This document shows positions 5,124 to 37,501 of a stretch of DNA of 37,501 nucleotides, piece by piece (position 1 is the first letter of the stretch; each line of letters begins with the position of its first letter). The DNA lies in assembly GCA_032718475.1 (NCBI GenBank), contig JAUCBJ010000898.1:1-37501 (forward strand), in the 5' to 3' direction. The DNA is from Nemertoderma westbladi (Eukaryota; Animalia; Xenacoelomorpha). A model generated the notes under the pieces. It was not told the origin of the DNA. It searched no databases and saw only the letters and a program-made list of their open reading frames with translations. Made by a program: the position numbers and the translations under genes.

Positions 5124-6301
5124 ATGATTAAATGTTACCAAAATAAAATAAAATTACTATCCAAAAACTTCGATAAAAAACAAAATAAAATGATAAAAAA
5201 AATAAAAATTGGGCACCAAGGCCGATCAGAATTCCGGAAAAAACGGCGTATAATTATTGCACTGGTTGTATTTGTGTTAGTGGCGATTGCAGCTGGTTTA
5301 ACAGGGTGGCTTCTGGGAAATCCTATCAAGGAGAATAGATTGGGGATACCAACATCGACAGTCCCAAATACTACCGGCATTGGAACTACTGGTTGGGAAG
5401 GAAACACTGGGAGTACAACTAGTTCTGAGTTAGCCACCACCGAGAGTACAGCTAGTACTGAGTTATCCACCACCGAGAGTTGGCCTACAGCTAGTACTGA
5501 GTTATCCTCCACCGAGAGTACAGCTAGTACTGAGTTATCCTCCACCGAGAGTACAGCTAGTACTGAGTTATCCACCACCGAGAGTACAGCTAGTACTGAG
5601 TTATCCACCACCGAGAGTACAGCTAGTACTGAGTTATCCACCACCGACACCGACATTACTATTGTCTCTACAGCAGTCACTTCAACAACAATCTCCATAG
5701 AGGACAAGTTTTATCACTCGTTTATTGAATGCATTGAGCTACAATGTGATCCCTACGCTCATTCCGATGTATGCGAAAAGGCTACACAATCCGGGACCCA
5801 ATATACCGTCGATACAGCTGATCCCATTAGTCCATCTACCGACGGCAATCAACTGAGATGCGACGGTGGCTGGATTATATTCTATAGTCGCATCGATAAC
5901 GTCATTGGCATCTGGGAAGACGTTACTTCTAATACTGTAGGTACGGCGGATTCGGAGATCCAAACGGATCTTACTTCCTAGGTGGTTTGACTAATATCCT
6001 TCGGCTGACTTACGGGAAGGATTGTTACGTAAAGGTCGACTTGGGTAACTCGACGAGACTCTATATTAACTTTACTATAGGGGGTAGTCCTTATTATAGC
6101 CTAAAGATAGCAAATTATGCCAATTCAGGTACTACTGGGACCGCTGCTACCGGTGTATTGGATAATGGAACATACGATCTAACGGTCCTGGATAACAAGA
6201 AGTTTGACTTCAGTAATGTATGTTGGACTAGTGGAACTCATCCAAATGAATGGGAACTGCAGAGGAAAACATTAGAGATGAAACTTAAATGCAAGTCGTG
6301 A
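5124..6301 (+). pseudogene. Type II membrane protein: signal anchor, Ser/Thr mucin-like stalk and divergent fibrinogen-related domain (FReD); one -1 frameshift near 5933 (pseudogene or sequence error)
   Basis: KKRR then hydrophobic IIIALVVFVLVAIAAGLTGWLL; TESTASTELST repeats; CDGGWIIF in the first frame; in the frame of ORF 5987-6301, from 5933: YCRYGGFGDPNGSYFLGGLTNILRLT..NFTIGGSPYYSLKI..EMKLK, matching the FReD motifs GGW, GFGD, F-LG-L--I--LT. Confidence 0.7.
5411..5648 (+). repeat. Coding 33-bp tandem repeat (about 7 units, 11-aa TESTASTELST)
   Basis: ACCGAGAGTACAGCTAGTACTGAGTTATCC(A/T)CC repeated; one unit carries an in-frame TGGCCT. Confidence 0.9.
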
Positions 6302-6744: not shown

Positions 6745-9700
6745 AAGTTGTCGGGGTGGGTTGATATAAAGGTTTCCATTAGGGGTTTTTCATTTACTAA
6801 ATTCAGGACTAATGTTGAGGAGGCAGATTTATGGAGACAGATCATTCTTTTTATATGTTGCATTTTAATTTTGTCGAGTTCCTTGAGGTTATTTAGTGTG
6901 AGATATTGACCAATACTTGTTGAGGTAAAGTGGTGCTGGGGCTATCTTCATATTGAAAAGTTTTAGTCCGGTTTCGATGGAAAGTAGAGGTAACTTACTT
7001 AGGGATCCAATTATTGAGAAAGCGGAAGATTTCTTTTGTTGGATATGTTCGGAGAAACATAGGGAAGGATGTAGAGTTAAACCTAAATATTCGTAACGAT
7101 TTGTTATAATGAGGGGGGTTCCATTGTATGTAAAATTATCAGCGGCCAGTTTTACGAAATTTCATTATTTTTGTTTTCTTGATGTTTACATTCATACCAT
7201 TTAGGATACACCAGTCGTGTAGAATATCTAGGGCATGTTGGAGGTCGGCTCGATCAGTTGAGTATAAGACCAGGTCATCCGCATAGAAAATGAGCTTTAT
7301 TAGATTACATACATTTAGAATTGTGTGGGCAAGGTTGGTAATGAATATAAGGAAGCAGGTTGGTGAGATACAGTCTCCTTGGAGGATTCCGCGGAGCTGC
7401 TTAATAGCGTTGGTTAAACGAAGGCCGTCGTAGGTCTTCCCACGGATTCTGAGTTGGTATATCTTGTAAAGGAGGACCCTACTGACGACGTCGAAAGCCT
7501 TACAGAAGTCGACGAACGCGGCGCACAGGACACGCTTTCCGTTTACCAGGGTTTGAAATGCCGCCCAGATATCGGGTAGGAGCTGATCCACGGCCTGGCG
7601 GGTGGATCTCCCAGGTAGAAAGCCAAATTGAAAATTGGGTATAAGATGAATTATATTTCGAATGACACGTTTGTATATCATGGCAGTGAGGATCTTAAGT
7701 AGAACGGATATAAGGGCTATTCCTCTATAATTGTTGGGGTCATTGACCTCGCCTTTGTGCTTATATAATATTGAGATTATACTTTGCTTCCAGAGTGATG
7801 GTATCTTACCTAGGTTAAGACAGGCATTGAATATGAGAACCATAAACGGTATAACACGTGACATAACATGTGTGGGCCGCACATTTTGAATGTTCGTAGA
7901 GTAGACGATCTGGGCCACAGGTTTTGTTATTTTTGGAGCCAGTTACAGATTGTATAACTTCGTCAGGAGTAATGGGATCATTGTACCACTCGGTTGAGTT
8001 TCTCTCGGCATTGGAGGAGACTGGGATTATTTGGCAGTTGGGGGGAATGTTTGGGGTCCCAACTAAGTTGGTAAAGTGAAGTTCGAGACGTGAAGCATCG
8101 ATTGGGGCGATTGAGGATTTCTCCTCCTCTCGAAATAGGAGCCACGGTTTTGTTTACGATTTACTGAGTTTCTCTAGGAGAGACTGCTCTTCGAATTTCT
8201 CACGTTTTGTTTTTAGTAGTTCCTTGTAGCGTTTTCTGAGGACCCAATATTGTTGGTTGCTGGTGGTTGATTCTTTGTGGTTCCGCATTGCTGATAACAG
8301 GGATTGTTTGGTCTGACGACACTCTGAGTCGAACCAAGGCTTGCCGGGGTAATTATTATATTTCTTGTGGTTGGAGCAGTCGATTAGGGTTTCCGACAGC
8401 AGGGTGGAGGCGGAGTTAATATCGTGTTGTCATAGTGCATTTGTAATTCGGCCTGAGAGGATGTTTGGGTGGGACTGAAGTTTGCGTAACTAGGTTGACT
8501 TTTCGACCTGGTAGTGGGGGGCGGGTGTCAATGTGGATGAAAGGCTCGGGGATTTCAATTGTAGCAGACACTCGCAGGTGTTTTCGTGTGGGGTTATTCA
8601 TGATCGTAATAGTGCTTGTCCAATTAGGATTATGTGATCTAACAAAGATCAGATCGATGCAGCTTTTGCCTTGCGGAGAGATATGTGTCGGAATGGTTGG
8701 GTCATTTAAGAGTAGGAAACCTAGGTTGCTCAGGTAGTCGCTAAGTTTCGAACCTCGGACCCCAGAGTCGATGCGACAATTGAAGTCACCCCCGATAATA
8801 ATAGTTTTATTGGGGTCAGTGTGTGTGAGTGCGCTGGCGATCGTTAGGATAACATCCTCCATCGCATTCATTGGGTTGAGGTAGAAAACGAGGATATTCG
8901 CTGAATGTGTATCGACAATCATAAATTCATTTTCTGTTTTTATCTGAGACGGGTTTAGCATGGGTTTTGCATAAGATAACTAGTCCCTCGGAGGGGCGCC
9001 CTCTGAGTTGGTTGTTTGCTGATTGGATAAATGAGTAGAAGTTGTTTATTGTATGTAGGGTAGATTTTGTGTAAAACGTTTCAGTTAGCAGAAGGATGTC
9101 ATCGTTACAGGGGAACTCAGCTTTGGGGAGATGGGCCAATAGATATTGCAGACCCACTACATTCCAAATTGAGATGGTAACCGACTGGGGACGATTTACT
9201 GTTGCGAGTGGTGAGGTTGGTTGTCGTCAACTACTACTGTCCCCCGAGACAGCGGGAGCATCACCAATAATATCGCTTGGAGGGATGGTGTGACTGTGAG
9301 ACGGTTCGACGGTGTGGTGCGGTCTTGCGCCATAGGGGATACGCTCTTCGTTGTTTAGCCTGTAATTGCGGATGCTGATGCCATCGTCCCAGTGAGAGGC
9401 CTTTGATCACACACGACGTGGAAACTTACAAAAGATGAGTCCAGTCTCGGAGGAATGGGTATCACTTCCTTAAATGTGAGTTTTTCCTGAGTTAGGTAAT
9501 CAGAAATTTCTTCAGCGGAGACTGAGGGATCGATCCAATCTGCCTATGTGTATGTGGGCTTTCCTTACGGGGGGTGTCGGGGGTTTTACGACACGGAGGG
9601 TTCCATCTACCTTATTACCTTGAACCGATTGTGATTGTGCATGATTGTATCGAGAACCCTGCAGGGGTATTGGTTGAACCGTTTGTGCATGTTTGGAGGT

Positions 9701-9960
9701 GTGAATTGGGGTGGCTGGAATTGAGTGAACTTGAGTGGTGGAGACTTGTCGGGTAGCGGTAGGGAGGGGCAGAGACCACGCACCATTTGAAGGTTGGGTG
9801 CGGCCTGACGAGTTCAGCCGGAGCAGCTCGTTTTTAGAGGATATCGCATCGCCCTGGGCCTCAGCGAGCTTCCCAAGGGTTATGGTGTACATGGAAGACA
9901 TTGTGGCGAGTTTTTCGGATACGGACTTTTCATCCTCTGCGGATATGCTTTTTTTTTTTT
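6745..9960 (-). mobile_element. Degenerate two-ORF LINE (ORF1 remnant, APE endonuclease, RT), truncated at both ends
   Basis: APE motifs ISIWNV, LLLTETF, IGGDFNCRI, SCIDLIF; RT motifs NNYRGIAL, QFGFLPGRST, FVDFCKAFD, GILQGDCISP, FYADD; several frameshifts and stops; ORF1-like HIGRL..HWDDGISIRNY at 9350-9901. Confidence 0.9.
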
Positions 9961-11740: not shown

Positions 11741-14700
11741 CTAGTAATATACTATTAATCTGTTAATCGGTGAGCACAATTCAGACAATAAATAAATAAT
11801 AAAATATGATTGACATGCAGGTGAGTACAATTCAGACAATGTCGAGTATTTAAATAACACAATCATTGACATACATAGATTGGATAAAGTAAGTATGATA
11901 TGTACGTAAAGGTGAGCAAATAAATAAATAAATAACTGACAAACGTTCAGGCGAGCATAATAGATAATAGAATATTCAGGCGTCATAAATAATTCAAACA
12001 AATTACAATAAATAATTGACATACTACATACAACGGACTATTCAGACAATCAACGTGTGAGGGATATATTGTAGGACTAGGGTTCTAAATCATCATTGAA
12101 TTTTACTCCGAAGCTATTAAGCAATCGTGAACAAAAGACAAAAGTGATTGAACATCATCCGATTTAAATAACTCAGTAATTGACGAAAACGGTAGGTCCG
12201 TATATTTGTTATTTGCGCGTATACTGTCTGTTAGCGCGCAGTGCAGAAGGGCGTGCTCCTCAGTTTGTACAGCATTGCTGCCACAGTGACATATGCGTCG
12301 CTCACGTGGAATACGTGACCACCTCCCGGTCTCTATTCGTAGTTTGTGGGCCGATAAACGGCTCCGTGTCCACGAGAGACGGTGGATTTTGTTATTACTT
12401 ACTTTTTCATTATAAATTTTCGTATTTACTTTTAGTTCTGGATTTATTTTTCTATATATTTCAGTTTTTGGAGAGCTCGTGTCTCTCGAAAGTCTGTTTA
12501 TGCGTTCTGACATGTCCGCTTTGATAGGGTCAGATTCCATGGCCAACAGTTTATCTAAGTACAGCGCCATGGGGCGGGGCTACGTACCGATCTAGCCAAG
12601 TTTAGAGCAAACAGTAGTGGTCCATGCTTATCTCCAGTCTTAGAGACAGACGAAATGAAAAGCCTCTGCCTGGACTTGATTAGAGCTTTTACGGAGGGAA
12701 TTCCTAATTCAACTAGACATAGGTCATTAGAACACGATTTACGGACCCCAAGGCAGGACTTTATAACGTCTACACACATTGATTCTACACACTGTAGTTG
12801 TTCTGTCAGCCATGTTTCGGAGCCATATAAAATTGACGATAATAGTGCTGCATCCATTACTTTCCTTTTGACCCAAAATGGGGAGTTGTAATTTTTGGCT
12901 AAGAACGCGTTGTATTTATTTTTATGGCACTCCTTTTCCTTCAGGTGGATTGTGATTGCACTTTGGACTTTCCCGTCTTGTGTTATAGGTGACCCGAGAT
13001 ACATGTATAACTGGCAGTTCTCAATATCTATCTTTCCTGTCAGCCTGTTGGGATACTCATGCGGTCAATGTCATCTCCATTGATAACTAAAAATTTTGTT
13101 TTCTTCTCATTAATCTTAACACGGTATCTCTCGCAAAACTGTATTAACACTGCTACCTTTTCAATAAGACGTTCACGGGATGTTGCAGCCATGCTACCTT
13201 TTCAATAAGACGTTCACGGGATGTTGCAGCCAATCAGCCAATACCGAGTCGTCCATTAGGATTAGTGAATGGAGAGACTGTATGAAACCATCTGGTTTGA
13301 GTTTCTTTAGTAACCTTATTAATGGGTTTATAAAAACTAAGAAAAGTAAACAGCTGCTGGGTGCACCTTGACGAACACCTATATATGCCTGAATTAGGCA
13401 ATTACCTAATAAAGCGAGTGTTCTAGAATATATACAATTTATAAACTGGACCATAATTCTACCACACCCTAGAGAAATCAGCTCGTCTATTAATATTTTC
13501 CTGTCCACAAGGTCGTACGCGGCCGAAAAATCAACAAACAGGAGAAACAACTTTTTCTTTTGCACTCTAGCTATATCGATTAAAAGGCGGAGAGTCATGA
13601 TATGTTCAATACAGCTTCTACCTTTTTGAGCACCGGCTTGTTCTGTATCGGGACACCACCATAGACTGAACCTTCAATAAATAATCAAGTCGAGTAATTT
13701 GGGTAATAGACCAAGGATGCTTATTCCCCGGTAATTGCTGCAGATAGAACGCGCTCCTCGCTTAAAAACCATAAACAGTTTACAGATCCGCCATGATTCT
13801 GGGTAATCACAGCCAAGGAATACTAGATTAAATACATTAAGAATAGCTAATAACCATTGGATCGGCAATTTCTTCAACAAGCCTGGAGCCAAATTATCAG
13901 GACCACAGGCCTTATTAGGTTTCATCTCATCTATGGCCTCTACGACTTCCACTAGTGTGATTGGTCTATCCAGAATTGGTACATCAGGACAAGAGTGAAT
14001 GTTGCTGGCTGGGATTACATTATTATCATCGTCTGGTTTTGATAGCAATGTACTTAGATACTGTGCAAACTCTTCATCAGATGGTTCATCAGCTGGTTTC
14101 GCTTGTATGACCGGTGCAAATACCCCCCTTGAAATTGATTGCCGACCAAATATCGCCGTAGTTATTGGATGTCAGTAGTCTTTCCCACCGAGGACCATAT
14201 CCGTCATTTTGAACAGACTTTAATTTACTTTGTCGAGCGAGATCTTGTAAGGTATTCGTAATTACTGTACACTTGTCTAAGATACCACTGGACAAACTCG
14301 CAACTGGGTCAGTATTAGCTGCCAAATTGGCAAAATGCAATTGGTAAATTTTACTGAAAGGTATTCCAGAATTTTTCCCGTTTATTGTAGGTTGTAAATA
14401 ATTTTGTATAGATTCTGCACGTGTGTGGAGTTCTATAACATCTAAGCGCAACGGTAATGCAATCTCTAATGTAATAGGCGCATGGTTGGAAGGGTAAAAC
14501 TGGTCATTATGCACCATAAAACAATTAATGTAATTTAATGCACTACGGGATACAATAACATAATCCGACACCCATCTATCAGTCATACGGAAGGTTAGGC
14601 CTGTTGGGTATGACACAGAATTATAACAGATGTTATTCAGGGGTAATAAGTCGCAAAATTTGCACAAGTTTAAAAGCGACCTACCATGTGAGTTGATAAC

Positions 14701-15560
14701 TCTATCATGGTTCGGTTTGTAATTTATTATACTGTCACATAATGACAACGGGTTTCCAATCTTACAATTTAAGTCGCCCAAAATAAACACATTAGTACCA
14801 GACTCTTGGGCTGCCACACATTTAGATTGCAAATTTGCGAAACAGTTATCATTGAAATATTGGGAGTCTGATGGTGGGATATATAACAAGCTCCAAAAAG
14901 CATATTTGGTGCAAATGTTAGGCTAAACCACACTTGGTCAGGCAGTCAGGGAAAGCAGTATCTACATTACATATATACTTATAAATATGGTTATGTACAA
15001 ATAATGCTACACCTCCGCGGTTGTAAGCTTTACCTATAGGTTTTGTGCGTATGGGCTCAGAGAACCCAGGTACTGAGAACCGGAAAGCTGTTTTAACTTC
15101 TGATAATAGAACGATATCGTAATTCCTAATCAATTCCAGTACTTGTGTATTTTCCAATTTGTCCTTTATACCATTGATGTTCCAACAGATAAATTTTGCT
15201 GTGCTAATCACCCGGCCCTTTAGTTTTCCGACAACTGGCTTTCTTTACAGCTTTATGAACCACTACCAGACTACACCGTCCCGTTTAACTGAACGCTCTT
15301 TCCAGTCTATACGCATATTACATCCAATATTTACTGGTTTGTTACGTTCATCGCGGAGAACTTTTCTCAAATCAGCGTCCCGTTTACGTTTCGTGTCGGA
15401 TTCATCCTTGTTTAAGAATACCATGTTAAATTCATCTATGTCCTTGAGCTTTTTCCCAAGCGAGAGTGCCTGGTTTCTGGCATCGATTGTGTTCAGTGAT
15501 ATCAGGAGGCGGGGAGGGCGGGAACCCGAGATGTTCGAAACAGCCCCTAATCTGGGGGTA
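11741..15560 (-). mobile_element. Degenerate two-ORF LINE (3' end of ORF1, ORF2 with APE, RT and C-terminal CCHC)
   Basis: ICWNINGI, LLSEVK, ILGDLN, SNHAPI; NYRGISI, FVDFSAAYD, GVRQGAPSS, LMDD; HKLRIETGRW..CHC..HALLHC; ORF1-like RLG..RPPRLL..VFLNKD at about 15265-15560; several disruptions. Confidence 0.9.
13151..13232. repeat. Exact 41-bp tandem duplication within the LINE RT
   Basis: TGCTACCTTTTCAATAAGACGTTCACGGGATGTTGCAGCCA twice, at 13151 and 13192. Confidence 0.9.
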
Positions 15561-16211
15561 CAAGTACTGAAGTACAGACTGCCTGACTACAGTACAGACA
15601 TAAGCAGATAAGTAGGCCTACTTAAGTACAGGAAGTACTACTACTACAGTCAGACAGTACTACCGGTGACTGACCGATTGACAGTTGACCGGTACAGGCA
15701 GACCCAGACAGGCTGACTGCGACTGGACTGGGGTGAACTGCTCCGTACAGCCGTATGTATGCCGTAGTTATTAGGCCTATCAGTCTGTCAGTTAATATTT
15801 AACTTTTTATCACTGTACCCTATCATATAGCCTATAGGCCTATAACGTATTTTTCTACCGTTATTACAGTATTATTAGGCCTATTATACATACCGGTACG
15901 ATGCAGCGATGTCTGATGGACAAGCAAAATTGTAAATTGTAAATCGTGACGTTATATTTAATGACGTAATACCAGTCGCCTGAATACTGTAATACAGTAA
16001 TAATATTACTGTAATAAAGATGAATAAATTACTACTTCTATTGTCAGATCTAGATCTGCAGATTGTGTTAATGTTACTGCTGTACTCGTACCGGTCAGCG
16101 GTCAGCCGGTACTGTGATATATTTGTCGATTTGTTGATTGTGACCTGTGGTGCGATATACTTTTGCTGTTTTGTTTATTGTTAGGCCTACAGGCCTATGT
16201 AAGTCAGTAAG

Positions 16212-17940
16212 TATTTATTTATTTATTTATTTACACGAGGGATCAAGTAGTTAAAAACAGAACATAACACAATACAATACACGAATAAAACAATCGGTCA
16301 AACAAACACAACATTACAGTAGTTAAGTAACTTGTACATACTGACATAAGGTAAACAGCAAAACGAATAAAAATAAAACACGGACATGTAAAAAGTAATG
16401 TACTGTAGTTGTCGTTAGCTAAAACGAGTGGTCGTGGGAGAGAACCACCCAGGCTCAGGGCACTTATCTGCTTATGGGTGTGAATAATTGTATACATAGT
16501 GATTAATATAAAAAATGGTGATGATCGAAAATGAAATGAAAAATAAAAAAAAGTAAAGAAAAGAAAAAACTGGAATCAACGAGTGAATTTTGCGTGGGTA
16601 AGTCTGTAAGTAAGTCCGTTTTTAATAATTGCACGGAGAAAATATTTATACTTTTGGCATCAACAGCTTGTGCTGGTAATGAGTTCCACACGGGCACAAC
16701 ACGGTGAGAAAATGAATGCTTACAGATTTGAAGTCTACATTGGAGAACATACAGTTTATGATTATGACCACGTAGACCAGCTCTTGGGGCACTTGTGAAC
16801 ATCTTATTGAAATCTATATCTACTAAACCATGCTTTATACGATACAACATTTTGAGGTCGAAAATAATTATACGCACCTCTAACGGTTGCACAGATAGAT
16901 ACTGTATGCGATTGAGGTAACTGACATACGGTAGTTTGCAGCGAGCGTACAATCGCCTGGTAAAGTACCATTGTACTTTCTCAACAAGGTCAATACTTTT
17001 TTTGTGAAAGGGCAGAAGCCAGAAGGGGACCATATGCTGATATGGGTGTGCAATATTCCAGCAACGGTCTTACCAGAGTCTTGTATGCGTTAGCAGGGCT
17101 TTAATATTAGCTGTCCCTGTCAGTACACTACGAAATATCCAGTTCAGTATTCTATACGCTTTTGCAACTTGTTCCCTACAGTCTGACAGTATTTATCAAA
17201 TTTTAGGTCCGTACACACGATTAAACCTAGATCCTTACAGTATGTATCTGATTTAAGCACTGCACCATTTAAATTATAAACAAATTTATTATTATTTCCA
17301 CCTACGTAAACAACCGAGCATATGTGCGCATGTGTGCATTTTGAAGGGCTGAGGCTAGAGAATCACAATCTTCCTCCGGTGCATAAAGCTTAAGGTCATC
17401 AGCAAATAGTTTATTACATACAGGTAACAATGCATCAGGTAAATCATTAATAAATAAAAGAAACAATACTGGCCCCAACCCCAAGACACTGCCTTGAATA
17501 GTTCCCGATGTAACTACACTACACAGTAGTCCGATGATTCGGTACCTACAAGTACATTTTGGGTTCTATTACATAGAAATGCACGTATCCATAGAAACAG
17601 ATCTCCGCATACACCGTAGTGAGCTTTGATAGTAATTTAGAGTGAACTACCGAATCAAAGGCTTTTGCAAAGTCTATATATATATAATGTCCAGGTTCTT
17701 TCGTTTATCAATTAAATTGAACCAATCAGTAACACATTCTAGCATTTGAGTACAGGTGGATTTACGATGTAAAAAACCGTGTTGTGCCCTATTTATTAAT
17801 TTATGAGAAAATAAATAATCTATTAAAACCTGTTTAATGCGCATTTCCATGAGTTTACAAGCGATACAGATAAGGGATATAAGCCGATAGTTATAAGGAT
17901 CTGACAGTCTGACGGATCGCCTTTTTTGAACATTGGTATT
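16212..17940 (-). mobile_element. 5'-truncated degenerate CR1-clade LINE with (AAAT)n tail
   Basis: NYRLISL, QHGFLHRKST, LGPVLFLLFINDLP, KLFADDLKLY, LRGHNHKL, FSHRVVPVWNSLP; (TATT)n at 16212-16232 on + strand. Confidence 0.9.
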
Positions 17941-18494
17941 ATGTTGGCCGTCAGCCAGACAGATGGTAATGCGTGCGTTTCGAATGATTTCGAAGTACTT
18001 TGTCAATAAATATACCGGTAGGTATGCGGTATACAGGTAGGCCAGGCCTATATATATAAATAGAAATATATATATACAGCAGTACCGTACAGCGGAAGGA
18101 TCCATTGCTGCATTGTCATTTCAACATGTCATTAGGCTGTTAGTACTATAGTACAGGTAGGCCTACTGCATAAATTGTGTTCGGTGTTAGGCTGTTAGAC
18201 TTAGATGGATGGATGGTTAGGTGTTGTAATCAGGTAATGGTAACTCTGCGATCTGCTTCTGGCTTTTAGACCCACGCCAGTTTGCTATCTCATGTGCCGG
18301 TATCTCTGTATCTCCCTATCTCAGACCACGACACCGGCACCGGACACACGAACTCAACGCAACCTCCAGTGTTTCAGACCTTCGTACTGTCGTAGTCAGT
18401 GAGGTAGTCAACGCAGCAACGCGGCTCGCCTATCCCGGCACCTGCGACCTGCAGCGCAGTACCTACAGTCCATCACCACTTTCTGACCTTTATC

Positions 18495-19208
18495 ATGGAA
18501 TCTACGACCGGGAACGACTGGAACTCTGTCCCGTCAGCGAACTCCCAATCAAAGCGCTCTGCCTCGGTAGTGAGTAGCACATCGGGGATCCTCCGATGCG
18601 ACATGCTGCAACGAGCTGTCTGGGTCAAACTCAACGTGGGCGGCCAGACCTTCCTAACGACACGGCAGACGTTGTGTAAGGACACGCAATCCTTCCTGTA
18701 CCGACTGTGTCAGGAGGACAACGACCTGCCATCCGATAGAGACGAGAATGGGGCTTACCTCATCGACAGAGACCCTAAATATTTCAGCCCAGTCCTCAAC
18801 TTCCTTCGCCACGGGAAACTAATCTGCGACAAAGACGTTTCGCTTGAAGGTGTTCTTGCTGAGGCGGAGTTCTACAATTTATCGGAACTTATCGTGGTTA
18901 TAAAGGCTAAGTTAGACTTGGTGGCCCGGTCGGGGGGTCGCTCTTTGAAACACGTCTACCGGGTTATCCAATGCCAGGAGGAGGAGTTGACGCACGTTGT
19001 GTCCACCATGAGCGACGGTTGGCGGTTCGAGCAACTCATTAACATCGGGTCGCAGTACAACTATGGGAACGAAGATCAGTCGGAGTTCCTTTGCGTCGTC
19101 AGTCGCGAGTGTACCGGGACCAACGATTTCAACGGAGACGACGATAAAATATTCACGGATCGCGAACTTAAAGTCTTCTCGACTCATCAGGCGCCCAGTA
19201 GGAGGTAA
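18495..19208 (+). CDS. KCTD5: BTB/POZ (T1-type) protein of the KCTD2/KCTD5/KCTD17 (insomniac) family, Cullin-3 adaptor; single coding exon
   Basis: [53 protein letters not shown] and family-specific [54 protein letters not shown]; intact ORF; AATAAA at about 19628. Confidence 0.93.
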
Positions 19209-24390: not shown

Positions 24391-26677
24391 GAAAAGAGTA
24401 AGGGAAAGCTATGGACCTTTCAATAACCTAATGGAACCAAAGCACAACTGGATTACATCCTTATAAAAACAAAAAGTGGAGAAACCGCATGATCAACTGC
24501 GAGGCATACAGCTCGTTCAACCTAATTGGTTCGGACCACAGAATTGTGACTGCAGAGATCAGACTCAGTTTGAGAGCCAGCAAACCCAGGACAAGCAAGC
24601 AAATCAAATATGACTGGGAGAAACTCAGAACTGACAATGCTGTAAAGGATGCTTATACAGTAGAAGTTCAAAACCGCTTTGAAGCACTTCAGTCAATGGA
24701 TGAAGACCAATCCACCAATTCAATATACCAGAATATAATAACAGCCCACAAGGAATCAGCTAAGAGGCATATCCCCCAGAAACCCAAACGAAAACAGTAT
24801 GTGCCATGGCAAAACTCTGAGGTTACTTGTAAGAGAGAAGATCTTAAGAGAGCCTACAAAGTTAAAACCGAACAACCAACAACCGAAAACATTAACAAGG
24901 TTGAGACAGCTAAGGACGATTTTAAATTGTCCTACAACATCAGCCAGGAAAAGTACATACATGATAAAACTGAAGCAATTACAACTGCTCACATACAGCA
25001 ACAATCAAGACTTACCTGGCAAACTGTAAATGAGGTATCTGGTCGGAAAAGTTGTGCAAAGGGGCGCCTCAAAGCCGATAGTCCTGAAGAACGTGTTGGG
25101 AATGGAAAAATCACTTCAGCAACTTGCTTGGGCAGCCACCAAACATCGTGGTCAGCCCTACAAGGAAAATATATGACAAGACACTACCTATAGAAACAGG
25201 GGACTTCACACATGCCGAATTCCAAAGAAGCATTATGTCCAATAATAAAGCGAGTGGATTAGATGAAGTCCCAGCGGAGGTATGGAAAACCGGAGTGCTA
25301 AACAGACCATTATTGAATGTCTGCAACCGGATGTTAAAAGGGGAAAAGCCACCACCAATTTGGACTAAAGGTCAACTAAAGCCTCTCCCCAAGAAAGGTG
25401 ACCTCGGCATACCAACAAACTATCGTGGGATCTGTCTGCTTGTGGTAGCTGCCAAAATATACAATAAAATGATTCTATATAGGATTAGGCCACACATAGA
25501 GAAACTACTGCGTAAGAGCCAAAATGGATTTCGACCAAGTAGATCAACAATAGCTAAGATACTTGCACTACGGAGACTGATTGAAGGAATTAAGTCAAAG
25601 AATCTCCCCGCAGTCATGACTTTTGTGGACTTCAAGAAGGCATTTGACTCCATCCATAGAGGTAAAATGCTTGAAATCCTAAGAGCTTATGGAATACCAG
25701 AAGTGATTGTTGCTGGCATTGGATTGTTATATTGTGACACAGAAGCGCAGGTACTCTCACCAGATTGTGAAACTGAGTTTTTCTCAATCCTGGCTGGCGT
25801 ACTGCAAGGTGATACATTAGCACCATTACTATTTGTAATTGTGCTGGATTACGCAATGAGGACGGCCACAAAGGGTGAAGATCTGGGATTCACACTTCAA
25901 GAACGCAGAAGTAGTAGATATCCGGCAACTACAGTCACAGACACAGACTTTGCGGATGACATCGCCCTGCTCTCTAATACGCTAGCAGATGCACAGCTTC
26001 TGCTAAATAAAGTGGAGAGGGCTGCTAAGGAGGTTGGATTGCATATAAATGCTACAAAGACCGAATTTATGACCTTTAATGTTGATGAAAACTTGACAAC
26101 CATTGATAATAATCAACTAAGGAAGGTCGATGACTTCCAGTACCTTGGAGCATGGATAGAGAGTAGCAAAAAGGACATAGAAGTTAGGAAAGCAAAGGCT
26201 TGGGTAGCTCTATTAAAAATGGATACCATCTGGAATTCAGATCTCTCCAGGCACCTGAAGACTAAGTTCTTTCGAGCTACAGTGGAAATTGTATTTTTAT
26301 ACGGGGGTGAGACCTGGACACTGACTAAATCACTTGAACAACGAATTTATGGTTGCTACACAAGACTACTAAGGGCAGCCCTAAACATCAGCTGGAGACA
26401 ACACATGACAAAGCCGAGCTTTATGGTACAATACCACCTGTATCAACCACCCTCCGTGAACGCAGATTAAGATTCAGTGGGCACTGCTGGCGAAGTAAAA
26501 ACGAGGTCATACCAGATCTACTTCTCTGGCAACCAACTCATGGAAAGCGTAGTCGTGGACGACCTGCCATAACATATATAGATCAACTTGAAAGGGATAC
26601 TGAACTTGGGAGAAATGAAATTGCGACAACTATGGAGACTGTCCGAGTTTGCTCGACCTAGTAGTAGTAGTAGTAGT
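24391..26677 (+). mobile_element. 5'-truncated RTE-like LINE (end of APE, RT), two frameshifts, (TAG)n tail
   Basis: QLDYIL, IGSDHRIV; NYRGICL, QNGFRPSRST, FVDFKKAFDS, GVLQGDTLAP, DFADDIALL, RRLRFSGHCWR; frameshifts near 25100 and 26410; TAG repeats from 26660. Confidence 0.93.
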
Positions 26678-27403: not shown

Positions 27404-27475
27404 CGGAATGTGGGGATTGAACTCGGTACCTAGAGATTCCAAGTCCCACGCTCTGCGAAGTGAGCTACTGGGATC
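27404..27475 (-). pseudogene. Degenerate tRNA-like sequence (SINE head or tRNA pseudogene, TGG in loop position)
   Basis: Minus strand GATCCCAGTAGCTCACTTCGCAGAGCGTGGGACTTGGAATCTCTAGGTACCGAGTTCAATCCCC: A- and B-box-like motifs, imperfect stems. Confidence 0.55.
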
Positions 27476-28201
27476 GTACGCAGCTTTAATACCAAAACAC
27501 CAATTATTATTATATTATTGTCATGCCATGAAAAATATTATTATGAACATTATCAAAATTACACAGAAACACGACCATTATCAAAAATCATACATAAACA
27601 TGACCAGTATTAAATGTATATTACAAATGAATAACCAATACCAACAACACCATTAACTATTCATTATTTATTTAATTACTATTAATTATTATTAATTAAG
27701 CATTAACAACAACACCAACACCCCAACATCACCGAGTGAATACTAGATGTGGGCAATTCCACGGTGTCGGACGTTATGGATATTCTCGATTTTTGAATGT
27801 TTTTCTTTAAATTTACGAAAATACTTGAATTTTTGACATCAGATTGCGTTAAATAAATGAGACAAAATATTAATCTTTAAGAATATCGCAAATACTCTGT
27901 TTTGGGAAACGTTATTCTTCTTAAACAGTTGACTTTAAAAAGGTATCGGACGTTACAAAAATAGGATACATTTTAAAGTACATATTTTACTTTTGATTGC
28001 AATTAATGCCGAAGAATAATAATTAAATGCTTGAGTTAATACAATTATTTTATTCTTTAATTGTCAAGCTGAAGTAAAAACCTTACCGGTAGGTATGCCA
28101 GTACAGTACGATACAAATACTAAAATAAAAAAGCAACTGACCATTAGACGTTGCATGCAATCAGTAATCAGCTGACAGCCGTCAGCTGATTACTGATTGC
28201 A

Positions 28202-28522
28202 AACCGGGTATTGTACAAATTTAGGAATCGCGTAATTTTTCTTGAAATTAATATCTCATATCTCTCCAAACCACGTACGCGTTTCGACCTTACTTGGGTC
28301 TCATCAGCGTGGTGTCGGATTCGAACCTGGGACCTCGAGGTGGAAGCCGAGACTACAACCACTAGGCCACATGGTCTTGAGATATGGAGTATTAATTTCA
28401 AAGCCAGCTGCCATTTTATTAGCCCCTGATTTTTATTATTGATAGTAACAATGTGTTGGCAAGCTGTATTTTTCGAGGTATTTGTTATTATACATTTATT
28501 ATAGGAAGGGATCTAGGGGTCT
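28202..28522 (-). mobile_element. Retrozyme-like element, inverted partial copy spanning the monomer junction
   Basis: Reverse complement matches about 28942-28982 joined to 28571-28851 with few differences. Confidence 0.85.
28265..28319 (-). ncRNA. Minimal type I hammerhead ribozyme, copy A
   Basis: Minus strand ACCACG CTGATGA GACC-CAAGTAA-GGTC GAAA C GC GT A CGTGGT. Confidence 0.88.
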
Positions 28523-28677
28523 AGTATAACAAATATATATAACTCTATAACTCTATAGTCTCTATAACATATACCTCGAAAAATACAGCTTGCCAACACA
28601 TTGTTACTATATCAATAATAAAAATCAGGGGCTAATAAAATGGCAGCTGGCTTTGAAATTAATACTCCATATCTCAA

Positions 28678-28737
28678 GACCCTGTGGCCTAGTGGTTGTA
28701 GTCTCGGCTTCCACCTCGAGGTCCCAGGTTCGAATCC
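28678..28737 (+). promoter_or_regulatory. tRNA-like internal Pol III promoter directly upstream of the hammerhead (mirrored at about 28317-28376 on - strand)
   Basis: A box TGGCCTAGTGG (28685-28695), B box GGTTCGAATCC (28727-28737). Confidence 0.8.
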
Positions 28738-28788
28738 GAAACCACGCTGATGAGACCCAGTAAGGTCGAAACGCGTACGTGGTTTGGA
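28735..28788 (+). ncRNA. Minimal type I hammerhead ribozyme, copy B
   Basis: Stem I AAACCACG/CGTGGTTT, core CTGATGA 28747-28753, stem II GACC-CAGTAA-GGTC, GAAA 28768-28771, palindromic stem III ACGCGT, predicted GUA cleavage after 28777. Confidence 0.9.
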
Positions 28789-29668
28789 GTGATATGAGAT
28801 ATTAATTTCAAGAAAAATTACGCGATGCCTAAATTTGTACAATACAGGGTTAAAAAGTACGCATGAGATCGGATTAGTCCTACAATTGCGCACATAAAAG
28901 ATAAGTTATTTTCGGTAAACTAAACTTATCACTCGAGGTTAAGACCCCTAGATCCCTTCCTATAATAAATGTATAATAACAAATACCTCGAAAAATACAG
29001 CTTGCCAATACATTGTTACTATAAATAATAAAAATTTGGACCGTGCGGAACGTTACGTGTTGGACGTTACATAATAATTAGCAATATTTAGCCACCTCTC
29101 TCGGCTTTATTATTCATCTTTGGAATGAGATCTAGATATCATTAGAACCGCCTTCATCTGCAGATTCCGAATATGAAAACCATTTTAAATTTCACCAATA
29201 ATTGACAAACATATTATCAAAATACTAAGGTGTGAATTTTGAGTCGAAAATATCGTCTTTAATATGAATCACACTTTGAACATACTCGTTAGATTGAACC
29301 AATGTTGTACGAAATTGACCGACAATCAATTTGGTTTTAGTCCAGGACTGGGTACCGAGACTTGTATAAATATGTTGAATACCACACATATAAAATATTA
29401 TTATAAATATAAAGTTAAAGTTAAATAAAAGATCAAGTTACAGGATTATAACTCTAAATATTGTAAAGTTTTGCCCAATATCGTCGAAATGGTCCAATAA
29501 GTCACATTTTCATAGTTTTCTTCATCATCTGATCAAATATTCTAGTTGCATTTTCATATCTTTCTTTCTCCATTTTAGATGATGCTCGTGCAACTTTTAT
29601 AGATATTAATTCCTTCTCAAAAGTTTATTGACTCGGATTTCTCAACACATTATCCCCCATTTTCGGCA

Positions 29669-30187
29669 CTATTGTAATTTTCTTTGGAGTCCAATAATAT
29701 AACATATCATTACAGTAATTAAATAATTAACGGACACCATCCACAGAGGGTGGAGCGTGGGGATTCTACACAACCACATTGCAGAGTTCCCGCGCCACAA
29801 GGCGACAGAGAGCCGTTGGAAGAGGTGGCGAATGGCTTCTCCTGTAGGGATTCCTCGTCTGAGACCTTGCATTCTGGCAATCTCACGAATGGTGGAGGAT
29901 GAGTGAGAATCCCATCCACCTAGGGCTTCAACCACAAGTGGGGTGAAGCCTGTTCCGGAATTCCTGCACTCAACCAAGTGAGCAGCAAGCTTGCGGTCTC
30001 TGGCGATGGATTGGGCGTGGCCTGCATCAGCAGCAGCGCCATCTACAGTTCGGGCCTGCAGGGAGGAAATCACTGTGATATCTAGGGCCATTGGGTGACC
30101 ATGATGCCAATTCGGTAGGAAAATGTCGGCAGGGCGGCTGCGGGAACCTGGAATGAGGCCTGGCACAGGCAAAACCTGGCACTTCAC
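29669..30187 (-). mobile_element. 3' fragment of a non-LTR retrotransposon with a restriction-like endonuclease (CRE-like)
   Basis: RPADIFLPNW..MALDITV..FTPLVVEALGGW..LFQRLSVALWRGN; GC-rich island in AT-rich transposon DNA; possible GGCACT TSD (29665, 30178). Confidence 0.8.
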
Positions 30188-31699
30188 TCCGGGGCGCTAA
30201 TCCGAGTCGAAAATCGCAATTATTGAAACCTATTTTTATTTATTTATGTCTTTTATACTATACACTACAATTTAGACATTAAATAATAATAGTGTCGGAC
30301 GTTACAAGTGTCGGACGTTACAAACTTCATTTACTGAAATCACAGCCTTTGTGGTAGCCTGAATTGCTGTAAATGGCATAAGAGACGCCATCTTACGTCG
30401 GCATTGAGTTATTTGAATTTCGATATGGTTTGCCAAACAATAGAGAAGTAATTGAGAAAAATTGTGTCGGACGTTACATTTGGATACAGGTAGCTTGTAA
30501 TGCTTATTGTATGATAAGCGTTTTATGTTTATGTGGTAGAACTACCTCATTGGAATGTGCATTTACGGCAGATTTCAATGATACCAAGGATAGCCTATAT
30601 GGATAATAAGTAAAAAAATATTTCGCCTTGAATTTTGGTATTTTTTTTTTCGTTTTTACGAGTTTTATGTGTTTTCTTGATGATGGTCGTTATAATCGCA
30701 AAATTTCCTACTTTATACCCTCAAATCAATGTAAATTTTGTCAAATTCGAAAAATTTAGAAAATTTTAAAAAATAAATCATGACATATTGCTTATTTTTT
30801 AAAGATTTATTTTTTTCATATCGTGGCCCCTTTTCTCTGGAAATGCCCATGTCTCGCTACACGGACCTAAAAACATATTTCGTTTGAGCAGTAATTACTA
30901 ACTACTGCCCTACATATAAATATATGACTAATAATAAGAATGCAAAATGCTGCAAAAAATTCAGGAAAAACCGCGAGAAAAACCGCAAATGATTTTAGAG
31001 CAAAACAGAACAATCTTAACACATCATGCAACTAGTGAACTATTATTACTAACTATTATATTCTCGAACAAAAATAATAACTATTTGAACTCTGAAGTAC
31101 TGTAGTAGCTAAATAGGTAAACCAAGAATCATTAATTGTTTTATTTATTTGTATCACATGACATTAATTTCGCGCTACCAAATCGCCAGGGATACATATT
31201 TTCTAACTTTACATCGCAGTGCGACATTATTTCTCTGTATGTCCTTACGCCATACATTTTACTGTACTACTATGTATTTACACATTTTCCAGTATGTCAC
31301 CAGCGGCATTTTAAATACAGTATAATCAATCACATGACGTCATTCGAATATACACAATATCTATTTCACAATTCTAAAACTTACAAAAATGAAATTGGTG
31401 AAATCAAACCTCCAACGGGCTTTGCATTCATTACCCATGAAAGCTTTTAGTAAAAACATATATTCTGGAACAAATATTTTTGTTCTCGAACGAATTTTAT
31501 AAAAGCTTTAAAAAATGTTTTCATTAATGTGGTTGCATTATGTCACGGAAATTATGTTTTCTATGTTTTCTAGAACATTGTATGTTAAATGTATATTTAT
31601 AGCCAAGATTAATAGCTAAGACGCTTATAGCTGCGAAACTCCGAAACTTGAATAATATTTCAATAATTCAATATTTTTTTATATTTCATCCAGAGCTGT

Positions 31700-34913: not shown

Positions 34914-35633
34914 ATGGCTGTATTTATCCATTCCTATCCAGACTGGGTTAGGCAAATGGAGGATTATATGGTGAAATGCGAAATGTTGATTAGTTGTTTT
35001 ATTTATGATATAAATGTAGTCACGCAAACTTTATGGACACAACTAAAGAGATTTAAATATGACTCAGCGTGGATGGAGCATGATAACTTCAAGAAAGCAT
35101 TAAACTTAAAAACGTTGAATGCAAATCACGAAATTTTTGCAAGTTTACCACATATCATCTCTGGAGAGCTGTCCTATTCAATTCCAAATATTGAAATTAC
35201 AGTTCCTGAAATTATATCTTATAAGTTAGATTATTATCCGACCCAGGAATTCTTGGATTCGCCTGACACCGTAAGAGAAACAGAGGAAAACTATCGAATG
35301 TATGGTTGCTGGGAAACCAACAGGGAAATGTATCCTCGTTTCATCCAATGGTACGAGGTATGGACCCTTAAAATGCTGCAAGCGAAACACCTGTACGAGA
35401 ACTACTTCCGCTGGGCAGTGAAGGAGGCCTATAGGAATACAGATATGCGAATAATTGAGTCTTATCTGTCTGCAGAGTTGAACAATGGCGATAGAGGTAG
35501 GTCTAAGGTCTGGGGTGCATGCTTACTACTAGGATCGGCATGCTGCATTGCAGCTGCATTTTTAAGAATGCTGTGCCGGCTTGTCAACAAAATTGCACCG
35601 CCACAACTCCCTATCACCCATGACATTTCCTAG
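34914..35633 (+). CDS. Hypothetical intronless protein; about 195 native codons, then read-through into the antisense LINE tail
   Basis: Long open frame in AT-rich DNA; TATAAAAA at 34887, 27 nt before ATG 34914; last about 45 codons overlap the LINE 3' end. Confidence 0.5.
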   Translation: MAVFIHSYPDWVRQMEDYMVKCEMLISCFIYDINVVTQTLWTQLKRFKYDSAWMEHDNFKKALNLKTLNANHEIFASLPHIISGELSYSIPNIEITVPEIISYKLDYYPTQEFLDSPDTVRETEENYRMYGCWETNREMYPRFIQWYEVWTLKMLQAKHLYENYFRWAVKEAYRNTDMRIIESYLSAELNNGDRGRSKVWGACLLLGSACCIAAAFLRMLCRLVNKIAPPQLPITHDIS

Positions 35634-37501
35634 ATCATCCGCATCTTTAAGGCCAGTGTCCTTTAAGATGCGTCTCAAGAAAGTCATGGGCTGTCCACCA
35701 TGCTTATTCACTCCATGAGGCTGCCAAAGTACAAGATTATGCACTGGCTGGTCCTCACGGCGAAAGCAATGTCCTGCAAAGCGGAGGCGATTTTGTTCTA
35801 GTGTCAAGCTTGGGGGAACCAATGAGACACCTCCAATGTTATATAGTGTCTGGTTGGAGATGTGTGCATTGTACTTGACACAATGAACCCGGCGTAGCAT
35901 TCTTGTGAATGTGCCATCCAGAGATTTGGTGTCCTCAGCAGTTAGAGCCCAGCATGGACTCCCGTAGAGGAGTACTGGAACTACTGCTGCTCTAAATAAT
36001 CGGACCTTAAGTTTCCGATTAATTCTCGGTGACTTCCAAATCCTGGAAAGCCTATTCAAGGCTGCCCATGCCTTTCCCTTACGTATTCGAAGGTCCTCAC
36101 CTGACTTCCGGATCCATGATCCCAGGTAACAGAAGTCGTCCACATGCTCAAGCATACCATCCTTTGAGCTTATGCTCATCCGATCAGAGACTTGCTGAGG
36201 ACTTTCAAAGTTAACTGTCAGAATTTTGGTCTTTCTGGAGTTAATAAAAAGACCAACACTAGAAGCAGCATGTTCTAATGAGCTGAGGAGCCGTTGGGCT
36301 CCCTCTAATGATTCTGAGAGTACTCCTAAGTCATCAGCAAAGTCTAGATCAGTTAGGTACTTGGCAGGATTTCCTCGACTTCTGGAGCCAGTAGGTGGAG
36401 TTATCATCACCCCATCATCATTATGATGATCTAAGGACATGCGTAGAACATAGTCAACCACAATAATGAACAAGAATGGTGCAAGTGTGTCTCCTTGGAG
36501 GACGCCCCATAACACTTCAAATGGTTCTGTGTCACCGTCAGCAGTAGACACAAATGTTGTCGAACCATCGTATACTGATCTGATTGCTGCAATAATTTCA
36601 TCAGGAATCCCATATAATGAAAGTATGCTGAACACACGTGAGCGAGAGACTGAATCAAAGGCCTTGAAGAAGTCAATAAAGATAACAGCCAGATGCCTGT
36701 CTTTCTTTTTTGATAATTCTTCAATTATCCTTCTAAGTGCCAAAATGGGCTCCATGGTCCCACGACCTTTACGGAACCCATTCTGATTTCCACGGAGCAG
36801 TCTCTCAATGGGATCCCTGATGCGATTTAATAGAATCCTATTGTATAGCTTTGCAGCAATCGAGATCAATGAGATTCCCCGAAAAGAACCATAGAGTGTT
36901 AGGTTGCCCTTCTTGGGAACTGGCACCAACTTATTTGTTTTCATTTCTTGTGGGACTCTTGTTGTACGGTACATGTCTACTATGATGGGATAGATGAGCT
37001 TTAAACACTCAGGTATTTTAAAGACCTCAGGGGGAACACCATCTACTCCACTGGCACGATTGGTCTTAATGCTCTTTGCAGCAGCCTTCACTTCTGCAAA
37101 GGAGATATCGCCAATGGGAATATCTGGGAGTACAGACTCAGACACCTTTACTTCTATAAAGTTATCAGGCAATACCCTGTCATTATTGAGGAGCTTTTCA
37201 AAGTGGGCTTTCCAACCATTGAGGCGATCGGCTGGTGATTCAGCCTTAACCTTGGTGGTTGGTTGGCTTTTCCGCCCAGTAAGTAGATTGATGGATTTCC
37301 ATGCCTGGGATGATTGCCTGCTGTCGTCAGCATCATTGATGGCATCAACCTGTTGGTTTATTAGCTCCTGTAGATTAACAGAGTACTGCCTGTTCAGGGA
37401 CCTAGATGCAGCCTTAACTGCATTCTTGGCCGCTGTAGTCTGTTTGAGTCGGGACTCTTTCTGCGCCTTAAGAAGGTCATTTCGTGCATGCTTAGCATTC
37501 T
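35495..37501 (-). mobile_element. Young RTE-like LINE; RT ORF uninterrupted from the window edge to the stop at 35562
   Basis: Frame open from 37499; SFRGISLIS, QNGFRKGR, FIDFFKAFDS, GVLQGDTLAP, DFADDLGVL, RLRFAGHCFR; no stops or frameshifts seen. Confidence 0.95.

Follow-up and report, generated by a model that had tools for sequence, protein, structure and literature searches.

A probable tRNA-headed hammerhead retrozyme in Nemertoderma westbladi with the probable footprint of Penelope-type insertion

Type I hammerhead ribozymes go with Penelope elements (PMC4209133; bioRxiv 10.64898/2026.07.22.740005), and in S. mansoni hammerheads occur as opposite-strand pairs 100-700 bp apart, as reported in PMC4209133. 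The typical Penelope insertion (PMC8557442, PMC3846280) combines a partial tandem with an inverted, 5'-truncated copy, the two standing head-to-head. In purified form, a Penelope protein cleaves AT-rich DNA, carries out extension on both strands and starts inside the RNA (PMC11167929), at a point that subtraction of the published positions places about 85-92 nt downstream of the hammerhead cut; the same source has the protein using uncut RNA, ribozyme cleavage being dispensable. Metazoan non-LTR retrozymes, described in PMC7229834 and bioRxiv 10.64898/2026.07.22.740005, are low-GC units of 150-450 bp that occur in many copies and carry type I hammerheads, with Penelope elements as their proposed partner. 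A hammerhead with a one-pair, palindrome-capped helix III represents the dimer-dependent form (PMC4209133, PMC7229834). The schistosome element Sm-alpha has a layout in which a Pol III promoter is followed by the hammerhead (PMC6765202, PMC2770079 and PMC8490949). For the animal retrozymes, the mobilising enzyme, the promoter and the need for a circular intermediate are still open questions in the literature available.

The locus considered here lies in a window of 37,501 nt from Nemertoderma westbladi, by which the whole stretch of DNA analysed is meant, and consists of two oppositely oriented arms of one 412-bp unit joined through a short filler (Table 1). It is probably a tRNA-headed hammerhead non-LTR retrozyme, a non-autonomous passenger of Penelope elements that has been inserted by the Penelope-type mechanism. 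A sequence-only reading of the same DNA had described a 412-bp monomer with terminal redundancy, a forward copy amounting to a 1.1-mer, a reverse copy that starts near 28942 and runs through the monomer junction as a different permutation, and divergent arms of about 280 bp around a stutter filler. That anatomy has held up, with some refinement. The redundancy, of about 60 bp, is carried by a direct repeat at 28564 and 28976 with a spacing of 412, which makes the forward copy a 1.15-mer, the period being 411 in the one contig that covers the full loop (from run X4, below). Inverted matches connect 28202-28488 with 28564-28851 and 28429-28522 with 28942-29035; in all, 28202-28522 corresponds to the forward copy through three inverted blocks, and when the monomer is doubled in silico, positions 371-693 of that dimer match the inverted arm continuously. 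The filler is likely the product of templated or slippage synthesis during joining. Two features of the unit were not named in the sequence-only reading, namely the type I hammerhead and the Pol III A and B boxes.

Table 1. Positions of the arms, ribozymes, promoter-like heads and junction features within the window.
Feature	Position	Strand	Description
Forward arm	28564-29035	+	472 bp, a 1.15-mer of the 412-bp unit; stops at the preferred A-rich 3' end of the family
Inverted arm	28202-28522	-	321 bp; read in the sense direction, begins at unit position 28942, crosses the monomer junction and ends at 28851
Filler at the head-to-head junction	28523-28563 (to 28570 as earlier drawn)	.	10-nt echo of 28976-28985 plus CTCTATA stutter
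Terminal redundancy, about 60 bp	28976-29035	+	Second copy of 28564-28625
Type I hammerhead	28741-28783	+	Intact core; predicted cut after 28777 (GUA)
Type I hammerhead	28270-28313	-	RF00163, 26.7 bits, under the gathering score of 34
Predicted long stem	28653-28675 paired with 28791-28811	+	Encloses the tRNA-like head and the hammerhead
tRNA-like head	28678-28737	+	A box 28685-28695, B box 28727-28737; predicted Pol III start at about 28678
tRNA-like head	28317-28376	-	Both boxes identical to those of the forward arm
Weak predicted hairpin; TCACTC (presumably Inr-like); 5'-end cluster	28900-28930; 28929-28934; 28932-28945	+	From junction ends and folding
Stretch absent from the empty host repeat	28016-29049	.	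Joint of 28015 to 29050 with 25 other letters; seen in X1, X2 and X3
Perfect palindrome, 21-bp arms	28156-28201	.	Outer left junction

Both arms contain a type I hammerhead that is intact, predicted to cut itself, and of the form that depends on a dimer. Helix I has 6 bp, helix II 4 bp and helix III a single base pair capped by a palindromic CGCG, and two copies of the motif are predicted to cofold through this palindrome. Rfam finds a hammerhead in each arm, the hits being HH9 (27.3 bits, gathering 52) and type I (26.7 bits, gathering 34, E 1.2e-4 in a local search), both scores lying below their gathering cut-offs. The long stem that encloses the head and the ribozyme gives folding z-scores of -4.3 in the forward and -4.7 in the inverted arm; for the complete 412-nt circle the gain over shuffled sequence is only modest (z = -1.6). 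The exact hammerhead pattern had no match among metagenome records. A relaxed pattern of B box plus core picked out eight loci and was set aside, none being a hammerhead or a relative of the unit and three being ordinary tRNA genes with a chance motif.

Directly 5' of the ribozyme, the A and B boxes match at 11 of 11 letters each, 42 nt apart, the consensus against which they were scored being one that we take to be the standard; the pair occurs in none of 300 shuffles of the window. The tRNA-like head breaks off behind the B box and passes directly into the hammerhead, whose helix I begins 4 nt after that box. Neither ARAGORN nor Rfam calls a tRNA anywhere in the window, as is to be expected because the 3' acceptor half has been replaced by the ribozyme. 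Downstream, Pol III might terminate at a T4 run at 28909, ahead of a full turn of the unit, and the motif TCACTC at 28929-28934 is one that we take to be Inr-like; TCACT is named Inr-like in a pLTR in PMC3846280. The region is low in GC, with a content of 0.37 over 28001-29000, and the unit is apparently protein-free and has no RT motif, its stop-to-stop frames on the antisense strand being two, of 97 and 114 codons. Elsewhere in the window, a second tRNA-like head of SINE type with degenerate A and B boxes lies on the minus strand at 27405-27477 and is, by eye, unrelated to the unit.

The two arms differ from each other at 11 of 382 aligned bases. In the forward arm a 2-nt insertion is private and one A is missing, as compared with the full-loop contig of period 411. 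Rare letters common to both arms occur at 28680, 28842 and 28984, where they are carried by 0.2-1.6% of the depth in run X1, and the arms thus come from one parent lineage. Private changes are spread unevenly, nine in the forward and two in the inverted arm, a difference that is not significant (p = 0.07) and would also allow two templates or two events. One X1 contig, at depth 54.9, is identical to the forward arm over the 118 nt of 28812-28929, including letters held by less than 1% of the family depth, so that the variants of this arm are real, with the caveat that X1 may be the source sample.

The abundance of the unit and the ends of its copies were examined by mapping the window with contigs from five public sequencing runs (X1-X5), six of the nine listed runs containing part of the stretch. 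The mapped contigs number 2502 in X1, 4497 in X2 and 2010 in X3. Across these three runs, summed depth reaches 1e5-7e5 over the unit against about 1e2 at 29286-29500, summed depth not being the same as copy number; crude limits derived from X1 are about 220 and 6900 copies, and a single X3 contig would correspond to some 400 copies at a single-copy depth close to 30. The unit is therefore an abundant family with, as a crude floor, at least hundreds of copies. The head-to-tail joint 28982 to 28571 occurs in X1 and X5, in a second mapping that gave the best 15 of 22 junctions, and in X4 one contig of 441 nt forms a closed 411-nt loop of the majority sequence, a signal that, in both cases, 1.1- to 1.25-mers would give identically. 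The X4 loop was not accepted as evidence of a circRNA: trace DNA of a high-copy repeat would look alike, and X4 is RNA only by guess. No tandem array with two hammerheads appears among the unitigs, which cannot show one.

Joints from the inverted to the forward arm, that is, head-to-head junctions at other loci, number 14 among the best 15 of 94 and the best 12 of 69 junctions; three of these 14, on the best-supported rows, recur in X3, which belongs to a second study, and some of the short joints may have arisen from mapping. Eight of the 14 have an end within 28926-28945, and seven of the eight ends among them that can be mapped only in 28852-28941 lie within 28932-28941, both ranges having been picked after the data were seen. 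One joint of the 14 has an end near the cut site (28780), and none has an end at the tRNA head (28678). At the other side of the unit, 3' ends passing into long unlike flanks at the A-rich site were seen in 17 X1 contigs among the best 18 of 1143 loose-end rows and, in a second mapping, in 30 X1 and six X5 contigs among the best 12 of 177 rows; the private insertion at 28608 breaks the alignments, so the true 3' ends lie a few bases further on. The ends are thus not random on the unit circle, the copies having one preferred 3' end and one preferred 5' end, and the tRNA head is neither. The start of the inverted arm at this locus, 28942, coincides with the 5'-end cluster of the family at 28932-28945. 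Among the mapped contigs there is also a multi-copy one of 1831 nt from X5 (depth 401) that matches 28702-28810 at 90%, with a change in the hammerhead core at 28749, contains a piece from 28927 and continues into more than 1.4 kb of other sequence; it is possibly a longer partner, or a decayed copy within another repeat.

At the insertion site, the stretch absent from the empty host repeat includes, at 28016-28190, pieces of other repeats. The host repeat itself extends over 27751-30480, has six GGACGTTA motifs, is multi-copy in X1-X3 and is interrupted by the retrozyme complex and by other repeat fragments. Another multi-copy repeat, which contains a hairpin, begins at 28143-28201; contigs leave the window sequence after 28190 in X1 (13), X2 (13) and X3 (15), and because these other copies continue differently past that point, the copy here appears to have been cut at the hairpin by the insertion. 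The 11 nt at 28191-28201 probably arose at this locus when a shorter hairpin of the target repeat snapped back and was extended, and we infer that this snap-back preceded the switch to the element. No target-site duplication was seen at the 28202 junction, where the flanks have no word of 5 or more letters in common; an 8-nt AT-only match between 28015 and 29024 was judged to be chance, and a MIR6217 match on the palindrome (E 0.63) was attributed to a generic hairpin.

The remainder of the window contains broken LINE copies with endonuclease and RT frames at 6889-9958, 12103-15611, 16503-18120, 24432-26661 and 35562-37499. None of them has Penelope RT motifs, and none was found in the 37,501 nt as a whole, where the RT motifs are of LINE type only, in agreement with the earlier remark that the window lacks a Penelope RT. 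Next to the locus, a 175-codon frame occupies 29669-30196 on the minus strand; its product looks like the restriction-like endonuclease at the C-terminal end of CRE-type non-LTR elements. An uninterrupted BTB gene resembling KCTD5/KCTD2 (18495-19208, plus strand), with 49-73% identity across many animal phyla in a protein search for the KCTD5-like product, may be intronless or a retrocopy, and frames at 5124-6301 on the plus strand combine a transmembrane-like segment, 11-residue Ser/Thr repeats (a 33-bp tandem) and a region that is presumably fibrinogen-like.

The insertion mechanism that would account for this structure starts from a partial-tandem or multimeric RNA in which the hammerhead is uncut or re-ligated, a circle being allowed and not required. 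A Penelope-type RT-endonuclease supplied in trans would cleave both strands of an AT-rich target, and the 3' ends so freed would each prime reverse transcription at an internal site of the RNA: the right target end at the A-rich position 29035, the left one at 28851, 74 nt downstream of the hammerhead cut site, after the 11-nt snap-back of the target. The left cDNA would stop near 28942, at the RNA 5' end or at the foot of a hairpin; the 5' cluster of the family may accordingly mark an RNA start at the TCACTC motif (28929) or a pause of the RT at the weak hairpin of 28900-28930. End joining would then link the two cDNAs back-to-back, leaving the stutter filler and a target deletion with no duplication. 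In the source arrays, Pol III would start at the tRNA-like head, and two hammerheads would pair through the CGCG palindrome and cut out monomers, as in Sm-alpha and newt-type elements.

Unrolled as a linear RNA from 28931, the inverted arm corresponds to positions 12-333 and the forward arm to 46-517, with a single hammerhead; one linear partial-tandem RNA of 517 nt fits both arms, and a circle is therefore not required. Of the circular or multimeric template proposed by the sequence-only reading, the multimeric form stands and the circular one is not established; to a circular template we would give slightly less than an even chance. Likewise, its suggestion of a template switch or fold-back is retained as far as retro-copying is concerned, and priming at the two ends of the target, as PMC11167929 leads us to infer, is a better account than a single switch or fold-back. 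Its comparison with Penelope insertions has gained in strength from the head-to-head junctions at other loci, seen in two studies, and from the type I hammerhead, a motif that Penelope pLTRs and retrozymes typically carry. On the other side, no Penelope partner was found in the window, whose RT motifs are of LINE type; the offset of 184 or 228 nt between the two 3' ends departs from a 30-40-nt tail; and an A-rich end would suit a LINE as well. The Rfam scores below the cut-offs, the missing tRNA call, the T4 run and the modest folding of the circle likewise weigh against the favoured reading.

The alternative that survives best, though it is improbable, is a SINE-like element that is tRNA-headed, hammerhead-bearing and mobilised by a LINE, of RTE or CR1/L2 type, which would copy it from the A-rich end and produce the inversion by twin priming. 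Such an element would account for the exact A and B boxes, the preferred A-rich 3' end suits a LINE partner too, four sets of LINE-type RT motifs are present in the window, and PMC7229834 leaves LINEs open as partners of retrozymes. An ordinary LINE-mobilised tRNA SINE would, however, have its 5' end at the head and be flanked by a duplication; here both arms include upwards of 110 nt on the 5' side of the tRNA head, none of the 14 joints counted above ends at 28678, and the 28202 junction is free of a duplication. Twin priming by L1 on one RNA gives little arm overlap, in contrast to the overlap of about 290 nt between the arms of this locus, and the type I hammerhead is the companion of Penelope elements in the sources cited at the outset.

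Slightly less probable still is a rearrangement at the DNA level, by which an existing forward copy was duplicated in inverted orientation by fork switching or the repair of a break, reverse transcription having occurred only once. The three rare letters in both arms, the snap-back palindrome at the left junction together with the templated filler, and the apparent deletion of adjoining DNA would all fit such an event. The inverted arm, however, joins 28942-29035 to 28624-28851, an order absent from the forward arm unless an extra switch through the terminal repeat is invoked, and junctions of this shape, sharing its preferred 5' end, exist at other loci. Very unlikely is an assembly artefact, either a fold-back, doubted already in the sequence-only reading, or the collapse of a high-copy repeat: no listed contig of X1-X5 spans the whole stretch, and the filler at 28523-28554 has no contig cover in X1 or X5, a hole that proves nothing, but the arms differ at 11 positions and in permutation, the X1 contig described above reproduces private variants of the forward arm, and similar junctions occur in independent short-read data.

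The unit, for which we favour Penelope-type retro-insertion, stands close to three described kinds of element. Like Penelope pLTRs, it combines a partial tandem with an inverted, 5'-truncated head-to-head copy, an arrangement that recurs across copies, as well as a hammerhead and a probable internal RT start downstream of it, and its opposite-strand hammerheads, about 470 bp apart, fall within the range seen in S. mansoni. Unlike Penelope elements, it has no RT/GIY-YIG ORF and has a tRNA-like head; its two 3' ends differ by 184 or 228 nt, in contrast to the optional 30-40-nt tail that Penelope elements may show between them, a feature not seen here. With metazoan non-LTR retrozymes it has in common the type I hammerhead with an intact core and a newt/axolotl-type helix III, head-to-tail joints, a short low-GC unit without RT and many copies, in the terms of PMC7229834 and bioRxiv 10.64898/2026.07.22.740005. 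Those retrozymes form arrays of at least two tandem hammerheads and, after self-cleavage, accumulate as circular RNA; this locus has only a 1.15-mer. The tRNA-like Pol III head also sets it apart, the term 'Pol III' being absent from the accessible text of PMC7229834 and 'promoter' used there only for T7, as does the head-to-head geometry, 'inverted' having no match in the main text of that paper. Like Sm-alpha, the unit places a tRNA-derived promoter of Pol III type directly before a type I hammerhead, is a few hundred bp long and has a high copy number, and the promoter, in Sm-alpha and by layout here, ends at the 3' end of the cut monomer. The likeness meant here is one of layout, and Penelope-type inverted insertions are not described for Sm-alpha in the available parts of its literature.

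The element is thus of a known kind, the retrozyme class, and its modest claim to novelty is the combination of tRNA head, ribozyme and Penelope footprint. Each ingredient, the Pol III head, the dimer-type hammerhead and the Penelope footprint, is already published separately; literature joining all three was not found in a search that lay outside subscription journals, Repbase and supplements. It is conceivable, though rather doubtful, that a Penelope passenger captured a tRNA-derived Pol III promoter within the stem of its hammerhead and turned into a circular-RNA parasite able to transcribe itself, effectively a SINE of Penelope elements, independently of Sm-alpha. If that were true, Sm-alpha itself would be Penelope-mobilised, and the fixed RT start, the stop site and the target snap-back would map two-ended Penelope integration in vivo. 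With the Pol III head, the dimer-type hammerhead and the Penelope footprint in one short element, the three questions of enzyme, promoter and circular intermediate become testable in one genome.
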